64,000 bases of DNA from Patescibacteria group bacterium (GTDB lineage: Bacteria > Patescibacteriota > Patescibacteriia > UBA10025 > JAHIVO01): assembly GCA_041660605.1 (NCBI GenBank), contig JBAZWB010000001.1, positions 686,503 through 750,502 of the forward strand, written 5' to 3'. The position numbers and the translations under genes are program-made. This document shows positions 44,373-51,452 of this stretch, in pieces; position 1 is the first letter of the stretch; each line of letters starts with the position of its first letter. The notes under the pieces were generated by a model. The model worked only from the letters and a program-made list of their open reading frames with translations, had not been told where the DNA came from and did not search any database.

Positions 44373-45416
44373 CTATTCGTCCTCCTCTTTATCGTATTTC
44401 CAAAGCATTGGCTGCAGGATATTCTGGTGAGCCCTGACGTACTCAATCGTTTTCTCCAGACCCGCTTTCAGCGAGACTAAAGGATACCACCCGATTTTTT
44501 CCTTGACCGAAGAAATATCCGGCAAGGGCAGCGGGGTCATAAAAATCAATGACCGTTTGAATTTTATTGCTGATTTTGAATTGGTCATTTCTTTTATCTT
44601 CCTGGCGATATCGACCATGTTAAGCTCTTCGTAATGTCCGAAATTATAGATACCATTTTCATTTGATTTCATAAATTTCATCAAGCCTTCCACAATATCA
44701 GAAACATAGCAAAGCGAGGTAGTGAAATTCTCATCTCCGTAAATTACCAGCGGTTTATTGTTTAATGCCTGCAGTACAAAATCTGGTACCATATGGCCTT
44801 CAAAAAGAGGCAAACGCGGACCGTAAGTCCTGAAAATGCGGGCAATCTTTGTCTGAATATTAAACATATCCCTGTAAGTGATGGCCGCCGTTTCGGCAAA
44901 TCTTTTACCTTCATCATAACAGCTCCTGGGGCCGGTGAAATTAACATAGCCCTGGTAGCCTTCAGCATAAGGCGGTGCATCTACAAATCTCGGCCCATAC
45001 ACGACTACGGATGAAGTCAGTAAAAATTTTGCCTCATACTTTTTCGCTAATTCTAAAGCATTGGTAACTCCCAGGCTATTTGTATGCAGCGTCTTGATTC
45101 TCAGCGCATTGAAATTCTTCGGCGAAGTTGGGCAGGCCAAATGGTAAATTTCCTGGATTCCCTGAAAACGAACTTTGAATTTTTCCAATTCATGCATTGA
45201 TTCCAGATTTATTTCTTTGCAGATATCGTGTTTGATAAATTCAAAATTTGGGTTTTGCAGAAGATTACTGATATTTTCCACATTTCCGGAAGCAAAATTG
45301 TCCAAACAAATGACATTACTGTCCTTAACCAGGGCTTCGCAAAGATGCGAACCTATAAATCCTGCTCCTCCTGTGACTAAGACGTTTTTTCGCGGAAAAA
45401 TTTTTTCGTTTCTCAT
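44373..45416 (-). CDS. UDP-glucuronate decarboxylase (UDP-xylose synthase-like)
   Basis: 347 aa. VLVTGGAGFIGSHLCEALVKDSNVICLDNFASG, YDEGKRFAE (YxxxK) and overall UXS/ArnA-decarboxylase-like pattern. Lies next to UDP-glucose dehydrogenase. Confidence 0.75.
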   Translation of the reverse strand: MRNEKIFPRKNVLVTGGAGFIGSHLCEALVKDSNVICLDNFASGNVENISNLLQNPNFEFIKHDICKEINLESMHELEKFKVRFQGIQEIYHLACPTSPKNFNALRIKTLHTNSLGVTNALELAKKYEAKFLLTSSVVVYGPRFVDAPPYAEGYQGYVNFTGPRSCYDEGKRFAETAAITYRDMFNIQTKIARIFRTYGPRLPLFEGHMVPDFVLQALNNKPLVIYGDENFTTSLCYVSDIVEGLMKFMKSNENGIYNFGHYEELNMVDIARKIKEMTNSKSAIKFKRSLIFMTPLPLPDISSVKEKIGWYPLVSLKAGLEKTIEYVRAHQNILQPMLWKYDKEEDE

Positions 45417-45420
45417 AAAT

Positions 45421-46128
45421 TTATTTTTTTAACCTGATGCTCATTAATGAAAAAAACATTTTAAAAGCCATCTGGATCACTCTGCCAAACGAGCCTAGCA
45501 TGGCTGAGCTGCTTTTATCAACCCAGCGGGTTGGTACTTCTACTATTTTAAATCCCCGTTTCAAGGATAAATATAGCAGCTCGACATCAAAAGCCATATT
45601 GGTAATCTTCAATGATGGTAAAAGATTTTTTATGGCTTGCTTCTTGAAAATCTTCGCTCCACACTGTGTATCGGTAAAAGGCATCCAGAAAAATACTTTC
45701 ACGAATATTAAAAAACTGAAACTGATTAATTTTCTTGGAAAAGAACGGTTTATGACTTGCGAGCCTTTTTTCCAGCGCGAAGCTATTACTCCGTCTGCTT
45801 CACCGAGCTGATCAACAACTTTCTGGAATTCTGCCGGTTCAGTGGAACCGTCGGCATCAACAAAGCCGATTAGTTCACCTTCTGCCCGCGAAAATCCTAA
45901 ATGCACCGCACCGCCTTTGCCAATAGCTTTTTTTTCCTCAATATATTCAATTAATCCGGGGTATTCTTTTTTAAAATCTGAAACTATGCCGATGGTATTG
46001 TCCCGACAACCATTTAAAACGATGATGATTTCTGTATCTTTTCCGGAAAAATAATTTGTATAATCAGTTAATGTCTTGCTGATTCTCTGCTCTTCATTGA
46101 AGGCGGGAATGATTATTGACAGGTGCAT
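45421..46128 (-). CDS. GT2 glycosyltransferase (dolichyl/undecaprenyl-phosphate beta-glucosyltransferase-like)
   Basis: 235 aa. MHLSIIIPAFNEEQRISKTL and FVDADGSTEP (DxD). Confidence 0.8.
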   Translation of the reverse strand: MHLSIIIPAFNEEQRISKTLTDYTNYFSGKDTEIIIVLNGCRDNTIGIVSDFKKEYPGLIEYIEEKKAIGKGGAVHLGFSRAEGELIGFVDADGSTEPAEFQKVVDQLGEADGVIASRWKKGSQVINRSFPRKLISFSFLIFVKVFFWMPFTDTQCGAKIFKKQAIKNLLPSLKITNMAFDVELLYLSLKRGFKIVEVPTRWVDKSSSAMLGSFGRVIQMAFKMFFSLMSIRLKK

Positions 46129-46186: not shown

Positions 46187-46648
46187 TCAATTACGAAAAG
46201 TCCAATATTTATTGCCAAAATAATTGCTGAAAAGCACAATGCCAATTGCCACGGCTTTGGCAAAAAAATCAACGTTATCGCCGAAATATTTTACTGCACC
46301 ACTGTGTTCAACCACGATATAAACAATGCCTAAATTTAAAAAATAGTTGACCAGACTGACGATAAAAAATTTTACAGATTCGGACTTGGCCTTGCCGCTG
46401 TCACCTTTTTTAAAAGTCCAGAATTTATTCAGAAAAAAATTATTGACAATCGCCAAAAAAACGCTGGTAGCGGTGGCGTAAATATAATATACACCGAAAA
46501 CCCGCGTTAATAGCGCGTAAGAACTGAAATCAACCAAAGTACCGGCCACACCGACTATTCCGAATTTTAAAAATTCAACAACGCTTGGATGTTCTCGTAA
46601 ATAACTTATTTTTTCCAGCCGGTTTTTTAGTGTCATATTGCTGATCAT
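46187..46648 (-). CDS. GtrA-family membrane protein (polyprenyl-phosphate-sugar translocation-associated)
   Basis: 153 aa, 4 TM. FLKFGIVGVAGTLVDFSSYALLTRVFGVYY matches the GtrA N-terminal signature. Its start ATG overlaps the subtilase stop (ATGA). Confidence 0.75.
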   Translation of the reverse strand: MISNMTLKNRLEKISYLREHPSVVEFLKFGIVGVAGTLVDFSSYALLTRVFGVYYIYATATSVFLAIVNNFFLNKFWTFKKGDSGKAKSESVKFFIVSLVNYFLNLGIVYIVVEHSGAVKYFGDNVDFFAKAVAIGIVLFSNYFGNKYWTFRN

Positions 46649-48831
46649 CTGATAGCTGCCACGTTAACGCCTCCGCGGAATGATTCGGCATAGGCGAAGA
46701 ACTGGGAAAGCAAATTGCCGCTTTCACCGAATATTCTGACGTGAGGTCCGCCGGTATAGCCGGCACCGGCGATTATTTCATCAGTGCCGTCTCCGTTGAC
46801 ATCCCCCGCTGCCACGTTAACGCCTCCGCGGAATGATTCGGCATAGGCGAAGAACTGGGAAAGCAAATTGCCGCTGGCTCCGAATATTCTGACGTGAGGT
46901 CCGCCGGTATAGCCGGCACCGGCGATTATTTCATCAGTGCCGTCTCCGTTGACATCCCCCGCTGCCACGTTAACGCCTCCGCGGAATGATTCGGCATAGG
47001 CGAAGAACTGGGATTGACGCACTCCGCTATAATTAAATACCCTGACATGGGGACCACCGGTATTTCCTGCCCCGGTTACAATTTCATCTACTCCATTGTT
47101 ATCAAAATCGCCAACAGCCACGTTAACGCCTCCGCGGAATGATTCGGCATAGGCGAAGAACTGGGAAAGCAAATTGCCATGCTGATCGAATATCCGGACA
47201 TGCGGACCGCCGCCGTTACCAGCACCGGCGATGATTTCATCAGTGCCGTCTCCGTTGACATCTCCTGACGCAACATTAACGCCTCCGCGGAATGATTCGG
47301 CATAGGCGAAGAACTGGGAAAGCAAATTGCCATGCTGGTCGAATATCCGGACATGCGGACCGCCGCCATTGCCGGCACCGGCGATGATTTCATCAGTACC
47401 GTCTCCGTTGACATCCCCCGCTGCCACGTTAACGCCCCCGCGGAATGATTCGGCATAGGCGAAAAATTGTGATTGCACTGATCCTTGCGTATTTATAATC
47501 CGCACATGCGGTCCGCCATTTTGGCCGGCTCCGGTGATTATATTCATGGTATCAGCCAACACCACCGGCTGGGCAAAAACATTTCCAATATTTAAACGAC
47601 CACTGCCTAGTTGGGTGGCTAAAGGTTCGTCAGCACTGAATGGATCGGAATTATGCAATAACAAATTTTTAATTTCAGAAATAGAAAGCGTAGGATTACT
47701 GGCCTTAATAAGCGCCGCCGCACCGGCCACCATTGGAGTGGCCATAGAAGTGCCAGACCAGCCGCTCAAATATGGATTATCAAGTCCGTTTACGGGATCG
47801 TAAAAAGAAGTACTGATAAAATTTTCACCCGGTGCGGAAATATCAATGCAATCCGATCCGTAATTTGAAGCCACACTTATTTGCCCGCCGGATTCAACCA
47901 GTAATCGGGTATCTTCCTGATCGGTGCCACCGACGCCAATAACGTTTTCATCGCAAACTGGATAACGCGGGCTGCTATTGAGATTAATATTATTATTGCC
48001 CGCAGCGGCAAAAACCAAAATTCCAGCCTGTGTGGCCTCATTAATAGCGTTACTTAACAAAACATCCTGATTATTCCCAACAAAGCTTAAATTAATAAAA
48101 TCAGCGCCATTGGCGATGGCATAATCAATACCCTGATAAATATCCCCGGTATCTCCCACGCCGGCGCCGTCCAGAACCCTGATTGGCATAAGTTTAACCG
48201 ACCAATTCATGCCGGCTATCCCGGCGTTATTATTTCCAACAGCGCCAATCACGCCGGCTATCGCCGTGCCGTGATTAATGCCAGAGGTATTCCACCCTGT
48301 ATCGTATTTCGGAAGCGGATCCGGCACTGAACCGATAAAATCCCAGCCATGATAATCATCAATAAAACCATTGTTATCGTCATCAATATTATTATCAGGT
48401 AGCTCTCCGGCGTTAGTCCAAATATTAGCGCTCAAATCCGGATGGTTAATATCAATTCCGGTATCTAAAACCGCCACCACTACTTCATTGCTTCCGGTTG
48501 TTGTATCCCAGGCACCTGGGGCATTCACTTTGCTCAAATACCATTGGGAACCAAACAATGGGTCATTTGGCTCAGCCGCTGCTTGATAGTCATAATTCGG
48601 CTCAACAAAATCAACATTCGGCTGGTTTTTCCAGTCTTTAATTACTTGGGCAACATTTTCACCTGGCAATAAATTGATCTGATGAATTTTATCGTCTTTT
48701 TTTAATTTAATAATTACACTATGGGCATGGCTGGCATTCTCCCCAACGGCTGACGCCGAAAAAGGTGCCGTCAACCACAGACAAAAAAACACCATCGCCA
48801 GATACTTAATATATTTAGTAATCTTATTCAT
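46645..48831 (-). CDS. secreted subtilisin-like serine protease (S8) fused to a C-terminal 7-blade FG-GAP repeat beta-propeller
   Basis: 728 aa. Signal peptide. Catalytic triad motifs VAVLDTGID (Asp), HGTAIAGVIG (His) and GTSMATPMVAGAAALI (Ser). The C-terminal ~330 aa are 6.5 copies of a 51-aa unit FFAYAESFRGGVNVAAGDVNGDGTDEIIAGAGNGGGPHVRIFDQHGNLLSQ (FG-x-GDxNGDGxxD = FG-GAP). Confidence 0.85.
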   Translation of the reverse strand: MNKITKYIKYLAMVFFCLWLTAPFSASAVGENASHAHSVIIKLKKDDKIHQINLLPGENVAQVIKDWKNQPNVDFVEPNYDYQAAAEPNDPLFGSQWYLSKVNAPGAWDTTTGSNEVVVAVLDTGIDINHPDLSANIWTNAGELPDNNIDDDNNGFIDDYHGWDFIGSVPDPLPKYDTGWNTSGINHGTAIAGVIGAVGNNNAGIAGMNWSVKLMPIRVLDGAGVGDTGDIYQGIDYAIANGADFINLSFVGNNQDVLLSNAINEATQAGILVFAAAGNNNINLNSSPRYPVCDENVIGVGGTDQEDTRLLVESGGQISVASNYGSDCIDISAPGENFISTSFYDPVNGLDNPYLSGWSGTSMATPMVAGAAALIKASNPTLSISEIKNLLLHNSDPFSADEPLATQLGSGRLNIGNVFAQPVVLADTMNIITGAGQNGGPHVRIINTQGSVQSQFFAYAESFRGGVNVAAGDVNGDGTDEIIAGAGNGGGPHVRIFDQHGNLLSQFFAYAESFRGGVNVASGDVNGDGTDEIIAGAGNGGGPHVRIFDQHGNLLSQFFAYAESFRGGVNVAVGDFDNNGVDEIVTGAGNTGGPHVRVFNYSGVRQSQFFAYAESFRGGVNVAAGDVNGDGTDEIIAGAGYTGGPHVRIFGASGNLLSQFFAYAESFRGGVNVAAGDVNGDGTDEIIAGAGYTGGPHVRIFGESGNLLSQFFAYAESFRGGVNVAAIR
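46650..47530. repeat. tandem array of ~6 near-identical 153-bp repeats encoding the FG-GAP blades
   Basis: The strings gctgccacgttaacgcctccgcggaatgattcggcataggcgaagaactgggaaagcaaattgcc and ccggtatagccggcaccggcgat...tcatcagtgccgtctccgttgacatc recur with ~153-bp period. Confidence 0.8.
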
Positions 48832-50089
48832 TGTTTAATTTTTCAAGTGTAATTTTAATTTCCTCGCTTTTACCTCCACGCATAATCCGCATTGTCAGCA
48901 GATCCCCCGGGCTTTGCCGGCTGATAAAGTCATTTAAACTCATGTTCTGAGACAGCTCAGTGTTGTTAATCATTTGAATAATATCTCCGGTCTGCAAGCC
49001 GCCTTTTTGAGCCGGACTGTTTTTCTCCACACTGGGCCTGGCTTCTTCATCATCGCTGTAAATCACGGCGCCTTTGCTCAGATTGCTGCTTATTTCCACC
49101 GGTAAATTTACCACCTCAGCCAAATCAACATAATGTACACCCAGGTATGCTTGATTTATTTTTCCTTGAGCTAAAATTGATTCTATCTCTCCGGTAATCT
49201 GGCTGAAGGGAATGATATAATTTTGACTGCCGCCCGTCTGCACGATGCCTACCGCTTTGCTGTCGCCGGTAAAAGCCAGGGCATAATTAAAACTTGCCGG
49301 GATTTCATTCCCGATCAATATTTTTCTGTCCATTAATTCAGAAGATTTCACGATGTCCTCAATTTTATCCTGCGCATAGTAAATCGGTGCGACTATTTGT
49401 GCATTAAGAATTGAAGGGGTTTGGCTGAAAAAATGCGGCTGAAACAAAAACAAATCAGTCAAGCTCAGCAATTCGTCATTTTTTGAAAAAGCCACAGTAT
49501 CCAGCCCCTTAGCGTCAATTTTGATAAAAACAAAATTTGTCGCCGGGTCGGGAATAATTTCCTTAACCTCATATTTTACATTGCCCTGGACAAAAACTAC
49601 GTAATTTTCCGCCTGCGAATCACCAACAACCTGTTTGGTCGTTACCAAATATCCGTCGTTGGTTATAATAAAACCGTCACCCAGGCTGGCTGAATCAAGA
49701 TAAGCGCTTTGCAGTCCTTCTTCCTCACTTTTTATTTTAAATATCCTGGCGATAGTGGCGGAAATCTTCTGAGATTGCTGATTTACCTGAGCCACGTTAG
49801 CAGACTGGTTCTTACCGCTCCCGACAATAATAGAAGTTTGCGTTGTATTATTGAATATATTTAATTTATCAATTATTGGTATTGAAGAGCCGTAAGTAAA
49901 CAAAATAATTTGACTCAGGACACCCGCTAATAACCCGAAAAATATGGCCAGCAAGATGATGGCAATGGTACTGGTACGTTTTTTTTGGGGTTTTTCAATT
50001 TTATTTAACTCATCGGAGTATAAATTTTTCAGACTGTCCTCTTTTTTTATGCTGGATTTCGGGGAAGTTGGACTGATTTTTGATTTCAT
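48824..50089 (-). CDS. membrane-anchored trypsin-fold (HtrA-like) protein with a C-terminal PDZ domain; the catalytic triad is not clearly conserved
   Basis: 421 aa. N-terminal TM. C-terminal PDZ-like GAVIYSDDEEARPSVEKNSPAQKGGLQTGDIIQMINNTEL. GDS-containing segments (FTGDSKAVGIV) sit where HtrA has GNSGGPL, but no clear TNxHV His motif. Confidence 0.5.
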   Translation of the reverse strand: MKSKISPTSPKSSIKKEDSLKNLYSDELNKIEKPQKKRTSTIAIILLAIFFGLLAGVLSQIILFTYGSSIPIIDKLNIFNNTTQTSIIVGSGKNQSANVAQVNQQSQKISATIARIFKIKSEEEGLQSAYLDSASLGDGFIITNDGYLVTTKQVVGDSQAENYVVFVQGNVKYEVKEIIPDPATNFVFIKIDAKGLDTVAFSKNDELLSLTDLFLFQPHFFSQTPSILNAQIVAPIYYAQDKIEDIVKSSELMDRKILIGNEIPASFNYALAFTGDSKAVGIVQTGGSQNYIIPFSQITGEIESILAQGKINQAYLGVHYVDLAEVVNLPVEISSNLSKGAVIYSDDEEARPSVEKNSPAQKGGLQTGDIIQMINNTELSQNMSLNDFISRQSPGDLLTMRIMRGGKSEEIKITLEKLNNE

Positions 50090-50105: not shown

Positions 50106-50867
50106 TTAATACCATTTAGCGGTGGCCAGTAAAAAGACACCTAAAGTAGCGCTGATTATAATATAAGTTCTTATATTTTGCTTATTTAAATTATTCCTTA
50201 AAAAATCCCTGGATAAATTCATCACCAAATAATAAATTATTGCCAGGAATAGCCCATTAAATAGAAAACTTGTCGGTAAAAAACTAAAGACAAAATAAGA
50301 TTCAGACATCAGGACGCCAACTAATAAAATAAAAAATTTGCTTTTTCGCCACTCAATTTTATATGACCACAACGTACGCATGTACAAAAAACCGGAAATT
50401 ACAAATACTACGATACTAAATAACCACGATGGCCAGTTCATGAATAATGACAACCCAAAAAAGCTGGCATAAAATAAAAATAAAATGACCATGTTAATGT
50501 AGCCATATAGATTTTCCAGTGCATATGGCTGATAGCTTTTATCCTGATTTAAAAATTTAAATAAATTTTTCAATACCAAAAAAAATAATATGCCAATCAG
50601 AAAAATAAAAACCTGCTGAATAACTATCGAGTCAATCAGAGTAAAAAATACCTGACTGCCGGCAACTAAAAAAAGTGGCGTTGAAAGAAAATTCCAGAAT
50701 AATTTACTTTTGAATTTTCTGCCAGTCAGCGACCAAATTGTCAAAACTATTATACAAACGTTAATTGAAACGATATAATAAAACAACCCGTGGCTGACTG
50801 ACCAGATTTCAAAAAATATTACTACCAGCAAACTGCTTAAATATGGGAGGAATCGGTTAAAAAACAT
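50106..50867 (-). CDS. polytopic membrane protein of unknown function
   Basis: 253 aa, ~7 TM. No motif recognised. Confidence 0.45.
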   Translation of the reverse strand: MFFNRFLPYLSSLLVVIFFEIWSVSHGLFYYIVSINVCIIVLTIWSLTGRKFKSKLFWNFLSTPLFLVAGSQVFFTLIDSIVIQQVFIFLIGILFFLVLKNLFKFLNQDKSYQPYALENLYGYINMVILFLFYASFFGLSLFMNWPSWLFSIVVFVISGFLYMRTLWSYKIEWRKSKFFILLVGVLMSESYFVFSFLPTSFLFNGLFLAIIYYLVMNLSRDFLRNNLNKQNIRTYIIISATLGVFLLATAKWY

Positions 50868-50870
50868 AAT

Positions 50871-51452
50871 TTATTTTTTTTCAGTGGTCTCTTTAGCGCC
50901 GCCATCGTTCACCCGGCGTAAAATATTTATAATTTCTTCGGCCGTAATATTCTTATCATCCCTATTCTCCTTCTGCAACTCGATGATAGTCTGCTGGATC
51001 CTTTCCGGATCCTTGATCCCGCTCAGCTCAATATTTGCTTGCGCGCCGGCCGTCTGCACAATAATGCTGCCGTAATGGTATAATGTCTGCATTACCCCTT
51101 TAATTCTGAAACTGACGTCCTGAATCTTATTGTAAGTGGTCTCAGAAACCGTCCGGTCAAAAAAACCGCGCTGGTCTATGTCTATTATCCTTTGGTTGGT
51201 TATGATAAAAACGTTGAATGAATAAACAATAAAAGTTCTCAAGGCAATCATAATTCCAAACACTGATATTGCCGCAAATACGAGCAAACCCCAATTTGAC
51301 CATTTCAAGAGTGGATACAAAAAGAAAAAAGGTGCTATAATAAATATCATTGACAGTAATATCCTGCCGAGAAAAACCAGCCAGAATTTTCTGATAACCG
51401 CCACTGGCTCCTCATTTTCCTTAAGATTTTTAATTAGTTTATCTTCAAACAT
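50871..51452 (-). CDS. bacterial PH-domain (bPH_2/YdbS-like) membrane protein
   Basis: 193 aa. Two N-terminal TM helices, then ITNQRIIDIDQRGFFDRTVSETTYNKIQDVSF...GSIIVQTAG, typical of DUF304/bPH_2. Confidence 0.6.
   Translation of the reverse strand: MFEDKLIKNLKENEEPVAVIRKFWLVFLGRILLSMIFIIAPFFFLYPLLKWSNWGLLVFAAISVFGIMIALRTFIVYSFNVFIITNQRIIDIDQRGFFDRTVSETTYNKIQDVSFRIKGVMQTLYHYGSIIVQTAGAQANIELSGIKDPERIQQTIIELQKENRDDKNITAEEIINILRRVNDGGAKETTEKK

Follow-up and report, generated by a model that had tools for sequence, protein, structure and literature searches.

A predicted secreted subtilase with a six-bladed FG-GAP propeller and partly homogenised blades, encoded beside sugar-nucleotide genes in a Patescibacteria genome

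The 64,000-nucleotide stretch of Patescibacteria DNA analysed here (hereafter the window) carries on its minus strand, at positions 46645..48831, an open reading frame (ORF) of 728 aa that matches the Pfam S8 and FG-GAP families. We interpret its product as a putative Sec-exported pre-pro-subtilase of subfamily S8A, which would act at the cell envelope and bind glycan through a closed, six-bladed C-terminal FG-GAP propeller, and we tentatively attribute a five-unit version of the same protein, found in another public assembly, to the collapse of a sequence repeat. Taken together, this is the best explanation overall, and we regard it as moderately probable. The fusion of a subtilase to an FG-GAP propeller had been proposed in a preliminary description made from the sequence alone, and it is borne out by the Pfam Peptidase_S8 and FG-GAP matches and by the structure models; the full-length AlphaFold model has a pLDDT (predicted local distance difference test score) of 92.7. 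The exact 728-aa protein is already present at NCBI as MFA6098561.1, titled ‘MAG: S8 family serine peptidase [Patescibacteria group bacterium]’ (MAG, metagenome-assembled genome); therefore, the gene had been annotated before at the family level. The subtilase is a well-formed but unremarkable representative of a large family that already carries annotation.

The propeller occupies residues 425–728 (46648..47559, minus strand), as supported by a domain model, Foldseek and five Dx[DN]xDG loops. The preliminary description had counted about 6.5 copies of a 51-aa FG-GAP unit and suggested a seven-bladed ring held by a ‘velcro’ contact between partial units. The repeated 51-aa units are there, but only five of them are complete; together with a piece of three strands at the N-terminus and a single strand at the C-terminus, they add up to exactly six blades. 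The N-terminal partial blade consists of the equivalents of strands 2–4 (NIITGAG / PHVRII / VQSQFFAY), and the lone strand 1 (VNVAAIR), with which the propeller ends directly before the stop codon, would complete blade 1 together with them. In the GGPHVR register, this motif and FFAYAESFRGGVNVA each occur six times, the calcium loop GDxNGDGxDE only five times. In the calcium-blade motif as described in PMC3123361, strands 1 and 2 are joined by a Dx[DN]xDG loop. Such loops are predicted from a reading of the sequence in five of the six blades, as DVNGDG four times and as DFDNNG once.

The model of the propeller was built for residues 425–728 only, using a 108-sequence alignment. It contains 24 strands (6 x 4), with a pLDDT of 97.1 and a predicted TM-score (pTM) of 0.94. 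Of 120 homologues searched with a hidden Markov model (HMM) of the unit, 108 have six units, 418 of 540 intervals showing the 51-residue spacing, and six-bladed NHL domains give the best whole-domain structural agreement (7qrw, TMq 0.60 / TMt 0.65). Structure prediction of the C-terminal domain does give a beta-propeller, but the modelled propeller has six blades, not seven, and the earlier count is abandoned. The velcro idea survives in this smaller ring, as a predicted 3+1 closure that fits both the pattern of partial units at the two ends and the compactness of the model.

The FG-GAP character of the domain is supported by PF01839, which matches in five stretches (E 1e-22, 80 bits against a cut-off of 22.1), and by PF13517 (FG-GAP_3; 58 bits, cut-off 26.9). 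Within the 64 kb, no FG-GAP coding sequence was found outside the subtilase gene. Foldseek searches of the Protein Data Bank with the propeller model return beta-propellers only. The top match is 2ymu, which we take to be a WD40 propeller rather than an FG-GAP one; significant but partial matches (E 1e-6 to 1e-8) are found with integrin alpha, PVL, AAL2, Bap1 and YesW. Several of these fold matches are carbohydrate-binding, namely the GlcNAc lectin AAL2 (4tqm), the lectin PVL (2bwr), Bap1 of V. cholerae (6mlt) and the rhamnogalacturonan lyase YesW (2z8r). With the integrin-alpha-type propellers (integrin alpha, 2bwr, 4tqm, 6mlt, 2z8r) the domain shares FG-GAP profiles, four-stranded blades and the Dx[DN]xDG calcium loop. 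On the other hand, the calcium-blade propellers of integrin alpha, PVL, AAL2, Bap1 and YesW are seven- or eight-bladed and have longer loops (400–600 aa), whereas here six minimal blades of 51 residues make up only 304 aa. Since TM-scores to calcium-blade structures are only 0.4–0.6, the propeller would represent a size variant lacking a solved counterpart, i.e., a compact, six-bladed form of the integrin-type calcium propeller built from 51-residue blades.

The S8A catalytic domain spans 47560..48576 on the minus strand and is supported by PF00082 (E 8.7e-55), by a phmmer match to deseasin MCP-01 (3vv3, E 3.4e-48) and by Foldseek, which again points to 3vv3. The Peptidase_S8 profile covers residues 115–396 with 186.5 bits against a cut-off of 21.8. 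The catalytic residues are found in the motifs VLDTG (D123, codon 48463-48465), NHGT (H187, 48271-48273) and GTSMATP (S362, 47746-47748), and the oxyanion asparagine in AAGN (N279, 47995-47997). D123, H187 and S362 are invariant in the 108-sequence family alignment, N279 is conserved in at least 90%, and the triad motifs align with those of 3vv3, so that the intact D/H/S triad reported earlier stands. Motifs, profile score and predicted subtilisin fold agree in assigning the protease to peptidase family S8, subfamily S8A (subtilisin type), which answers the question of subfamily raised by the preliminary description. With the full-length model, Foldseek finds subtilases only, the propeller remaining unmatched; TMt is 0.88 with 3vv3 (37% identity) and 0.95 with thermitase. 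Deseasin MCP-01, AprV2 and BprV of Dichelobacter nodosus (3lpd, 3ti7) and thermitase (1thm) share the catalytic fold and the D-H-S triad with the query. Common to the query and these secreted S8A enzymes are also the DDDxNG[FY][IV]DD insertion, the pre-pro organisation and a mature N-terminus at the xPNDP..QW motif. What sets the protein apart from the solved subtilases among the matches is its accessory domain, as none of them has a six-bladed FG-GAP propeller. A kexin-type P domain is absent from the Pfam matches of the subtilase. A mycosin, i.e., a subtilase of type VII secretion (TIGR03921), was rejected as a candidate identity, with a score of 140.6 bits against an equivalog cut-off of 278.75; dentilisin and PatA were likewise rejected, their NCBIfam scores being far under the cut-offs.

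The N-terminal part of the protein has the features of a secreted precursor. The first residues read MNKITKYIKY-LAMVFFCLWLTAPF-SASA, with a Lys-rich n-region, a hydrophobic core and the SASA motif, suggesting a signal peptide of about residues 1–28 that would be cleaved at MNKITKYIKYLAMVFFCLWLTAPFSASA|VG (48748..48831, minus strand). This region is modelled as a helix (residues 2–20) followed by a low-confidence linker (22–34). A probable propeptide follows at about residues 29–85 (48577..48747, minus strand), with a beta-beta-alpha-beta arrangement in the model (strands 38–43, 49–53 and 73–78; helix 60–68) and a dip in pLDDT at 82–84, near its presumed cleavage site. As the mature chains of solved subtilases align only from query residues 86–88 onward, the subtilase appears to be a pre-pro-enzyme.

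At the DNA level, the blades are encoded by an in-frame tandem array of 5.3 copies with a period of 153 bp (46655..47463, minus strand; 82% matches, score 1043), which is the sole tandem repeat detected by Tandem Repeats Finder in the window. The period corresponds to 51 codons, hence is frame-preserving, as had been pointed out before. The repeats had also been described as nearly identical, and this needs qualification. It holds for the last 2.35 units or so (46655..47013, minus strand), which are about 98.5% identical, with exact repeats of 134 and 68 nt at an offset of 153 and three mismatches; the three substitutions, located between the exact blocks, turn GAS into GES. This appears to be the youngest part of the array. 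It does not hold for the array as a whole, whose units, compared pairwise in fixed register, are 66–88% identical in DNA and 69–89% in protein, with a proportional synonymous difference (pS) of 0.27–0.61 for all pairs (0.3–0.6 for most) except units 5/6 (0.12).

The core of the unit (codons 18–31, FFAYAESFRGGVNV) shows near-uniform codon use across all six copies, with four synonymous differences. Selection at the nucleotide level, for instance on an RNA element, was considered for this core and rejected: the genomes of relatives spell the FFAYAESFRGGVNV peptide with other codons, which argues for lineage-specific concerted evolution instead of selection on DNA or RNA. The identity between units within the protein (0.83) is the highest among 121 proteins, the family median being 0.45. 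In more distant members the blades differ by position, for example through a divergent blade 1 or an insertion in blade 4. In the sister genome L082, too, the last two units contain an exact duplicate, of 185 nt and independent of the one here. Thus, the blades have been homogenised at the DNA level in a lineage-specific manner, and the near-identical 3′ units probably go back to unequal crossing-over or gene conversion that took place recently between neighbouring blades. Homogenisation of adjacent blades recurs independently, at differing positions, in different genomes. Close relatives with three to five units also occur (L082 8001-10145, L088 6001-7893, and proteins P0004, P0005, P0020 and P0077), some of them with identical adjacent blades.

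In these respects the array resembles recently amplified beta-propellers such as 2ymu, described as a ‘highly repetitive propeller structure’: the blades within the protein are far more alike than those of orthologues, and adjacent units share exact DNA blocks. Unlike in propellers of the 2ymu type, however, homogenisation is partial and mosaic and is confined to one sub-lineage. The GC content at third codon positions (GC3) is 0.53 in the propeller part (46648-47559) and 0.40 in the S8 part (47560-48831). Propeller GC3 is also raised, less strongly, in L082, L083 and L087, whose blades resemble one another more closely than the family median, and is not raised in L084–L086, where they are most diverged. 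This pattern could reflect GC-biased gene conversion or simply the amplification of one founder unit. A horizontal origin of the GC-rich region was discarded, as GC1 and GC2 follow the Gly/Ala/Pro content and the GC3 excess occurs only in genomes with homogenised repeats.

Clustering at 90% protein identity groups three sequences: the 728-aa protein, one of 677 aa (P0001) and a 647-aa partial one. The 677-aa protein, which lacks the ‘GAS’ unit, is encoded at locus L001 on a 960-kb contig of the European Nucleotide Archive (ENA k141_729649). Its flanks agree with the window at every position, over 11,952 nt and 10,216 nt respectively, yet the locus is 153 nt shorter in total; the alignment places the absent segment at 46727..46879 (minus strand), or in any frame up to 46861-47013. 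The partial protein, from a third assembly, ends at …GAGYTGGPHV, inside the 134-nt exact block. As public assemblies of one genome differ by one in-frame unit, repeat counts and claims of variation need read-level support.

A missing unit and a contig end inside the exact block are what collapse with contig breakage would give, and unequal crossing-over would give a missing unit too. On balance, we read the five-unit version in L001 as most likely a collapsed repeat. The most homogeneous repeat proteins nearly all have fewer than six units, and this is the signature expected of repeat collapse. Furthermore, the contig of the short version bears a MEGAHIT-style k141 name. The short version leaves no trace of a loss, since no exact repeat in L001 now exceeds 62 nt. 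Alternatively, the difference could be a genuine, non-adaptive deletion polymorphism, arisen by unequal recombination in the 134-nt block, with a five-unit allele that is either defective or oligomerising. Its junction lies precisely inside the 134-nt exact repeat, between flanks that show no mismatch, although an assembler skipping the repeat loop would give the same junction. Weighing against the collapse is that 134 nt is less than the k of 141 implied by the contig name: a pure k-141 de Bruijn graph should resolve such a block and need not collapse it, so that a true deletion could explain the difference. Likewise, a four-unit orthologue lies on a 1.15-Mb contig and contains no exact repeat longer than 80 nt; therefore, some short versions may be genuine. 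On the other hand, two exact-DNA scans of the Joint Genome Institute (JGI) metagenome collection, one with the 38-nt repeat core and one with a 30-mer that is unique and lies upstream of the array, gave 0 matches to further copies of the gene. We keep the deletion as a tentative alternative, rather unlikely in our judgement. Still less probable is a reading built on the preliminary description, in which a surface protease or adhesin would deliberately vary its blade number by slipped-strand or recombinational gain and loss of 153-bp units, in the style of a contingency locus. The in-frame units with their 134-nt exact repeat, the otherwise identical 22-kb locus that is exactly one unit shorter, and the four-unit orthologue on the long contig are all compatible with it, and the comparison of related genomes does reveal close relatives with 3, 4 or 5 units. 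However, the same comparison finds six units in the large majority of homologues (108/120) across deep divergence, and a closed propeller limits the number of blades. In addition, the variants stem from separate assemblies and not from reads, the third assembly breaks within the repeat, the shortage of six-unit forms among the homogeneous proteins is what collapse predicts, and the prevailing pS values indicate that the array as a whole is not in rapid turnover. Because six units are so strongly conserved family-wide, blade number is unlikely to be the selected variable, and a ‘variation mechanism’ under selection is the least probable of the readings.

The functional part of our explanation draws on the genes around the subtilase. 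From LepA to beyond the epimerases, all genes lie on the minus strand and are tightly packed, in the coding-strand order LepA, bPH, DUF5656, PDZ, subtilase, GtrA, glycosyltransferase family 2 (GT2) and two epimerase/dehydratases of the extended short-chain dehydrogenase/reductase (SDR) type; these are followed by two UDP-glucose/GDP-mannose dehydrogenases, a flippase and a family 4 glycosyltransferase (GT4). Two statements of the preliminary description are reversed by this orientation: the subtilase does not close the glycosylation locus but heads its GtrA, GT2 and epimerase genes, and the PDZ gene (48824..50089), said to follow immediately, precedes it, because the subtilase gene is on the minus strand. 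The GtrA-family membrane protein (46187..46648, minus strand; PF04138, E 1.3e-28) starts within the subtilase stop, the 4-nt overlap ATGA (46645-46648) being confirmed. The overlap is kept in L082 and L083, while L087 and L088 have gaps of 4–5 nt; such conservation of overlapping stop and start in relatives is consistent with a putative translational coupling of the pair. The next genes encode a GT2 glycosyltransferase (45421-46128, minus strand), which reaches no NCBIfam equivalog cut-off, and a 347-aa extended-SDR sugar-nucleotide epimerase/dehydratase (44373-45416, minus strand), the family's most conserved downstream neighbour.

L082, L083, L087 and L088 all share the block MurJ-LepA-bPH-DUF5656-PDZ-S8-GtrA-GT2-epimerase; their subtilases are 56–58% identical. 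More distant relatives lack GtrA and GT2 and still have an epimerase/dehydratase of about 340 aa after the subtilase, either directly (L085, L086, L002–L005, L007–L009) or after one gene (L084, L006). Overall, the epimerase lies one to three genes downstream in 16 of the 17 loci examined, L010 being the sole exception; L002–L010 are the full-length relatives among the matches listed from the genome-collection scan, the others being mostly unrelated S8 genes. GtrA and GtrB form the polyprenol-phosphate sugar modules of Gtr O-antigen modification systems, and the directly downstream, overlapping GtrA-family gene (PF04138) followed by GT2 resembles such a module. Unlike in Gtr modules, a GtrC-like GT-C transferase was not found beside GtrA/GT2, and in the distant relatives the epimerase follows the subtilase directly. 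The MAG records of L003, L004, L006, L008 and L009 are titled ‘uncultured Gammaproteobacteria’, taxonomic labels that look unreliable.

The subtilase belongs to a large family of six-unit proteins that is widespread in Patescibacteria, annotated but uncharacterised, with named relatives in Falkowbacteria, Uhrbacteria and Kerfeldbacteria. Our literature search on FG-GAP proteins, Patescibacteria/Candidate Phyla Radiation, subtilisins and six-bladed forms found nothing on this family. The propeller itself is a promiscuous extracellular module: as a query it retrieves 5447 representatives (50% clustering) at E<=1e-30, in proteins of 294–4928 aa, and the fusion partners sampled include L,D-transpeptidase, DUF11, carbonic anhydrase and CarboxypepD_reg. 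Two other metagenomic proteins, P0124 and P0137, combine it with an L,D-transpeptidase (YkuD) and a eukaryotic-type carbonic anhydrase. These fusions hint at a general role in surface targeting.

In the explanation that we prefer, the subtilase would be exported via Sec and then processed to the mature S8A protease, which would act outside the cell, at the envelope. The 304-residue, presumably calcium-stabilised propeller would supply binding, as a lectin-like module for a surface glycan that is possibly the product of the downstream genes; such binding would give surface retention or substrate targeting, and selection would keep the blade number at six. Binding of an envelope glycan is favoured because, among the fold matches, those microbial calcium-blade propellers whose function is known bind carbohydrates, because the module is also found on a cell-wall enzyme (L,D-transpeptidase), and because the gene persistently adjoins sugar-nucleotide genes. 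We infer this role by analogy and synteny, and several points weigh against the explanation as a whole. The nearest solved structure has a TM-score of only about 0.6, therefore the type of ligand is not transferable to this propeller; the conserved gene order might reflect no more than a stable cluster of core envelope genes; and the ring closure with its 3+1 velcro contact is a matter of strand count, pTM and sequence pattern. A different role, less probable but a serious competitor, is that of a freely secreted nutritional protease whose propeller binds protein substrates, integrin-like, next to glycan genes by coincidence. The nearest catalytic domains are indeed those of broad-specificity secreted proteases (deseasin MCP-01, thermitase, AprV2), no cell-wall anchor is recognisable beyond the last strand of the subtilase, and Patescibacteria depend on external amino acids. 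However, epimerase adjacency in 16 of 17 loci, among relatives as divergent as 36–58% identity, is hardly incidental, and the fusion of the propeller to a cell-wall enzyme also argues against a nutritional role. Finally, we consider it improbable that the six-bladed calcium propeller with 51-residue blades is a previously unrecognised surface retention module of Patescibacteria, a lectin-like anchor tying secreted enzymes to the glycan made at the adjacent locus, with a copy number genuinely variable between 3 and 6 in the homogenised lineage and short forms closing their rings by oligomerisation. If this were true, the tethered enzymes would include the subtilase, L,D-transpeptidases and carbonic anhydrases, in a role comparable to that of SLH or choline-binding domains. 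Should the envelope role proposed above be right, the subtilase would be a widely conserved extracellular protease of Patescibacteria linked to surface-glycan synthesis, and a candidate for a part in maturing the envelope or in contact with the host in these largely uncultured, mostly symbiotic bacteria.

The gene upstream of the subtilase encodes a predicted membrane-anchored HtrA-like protein with a PDZ domain (48824..50089, minus strand; PDZ_2, E 1.1e-12), with an 8-nt overlap (ATGAATAA) between its stop and the start of the subtilase. An active HtrA/DegP serine protease was rejected for this gene, since the Trypsin_2 match is below the Pfam cut-off and both the triad and the GNSGG motif are replaced: in comparison with a DegP-like structure, His is changed to Gln, Asp to Asn and GNSGG to GNEIP. 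In four syntenic orthologues no triad position is conserved, while the PDZ domain, the membrane helix and the N-terminal MKxKxSPTSPK tail are kept. Judged by these substitutions, the upstream protein is a conserved pseudoprotease. Because the two genes overlap by 8 nt, it is a possible partner or regulator of the active subtilase.

Two shadow ORFs lie within the subtilase gene and are read as no gene: one of 122 aa, itself repetitive, inside the repeat array (47088-47456, minus strand), and one of 89 aa on the opposite strand (47534-47803, plus). Between LepA and the PDZ gene, a bPH-domain protein and a DUF5656 membrane protein are encoded at 50106-51452 (minus strand), and both are found in the same place in L082, L083, L087 and L088.

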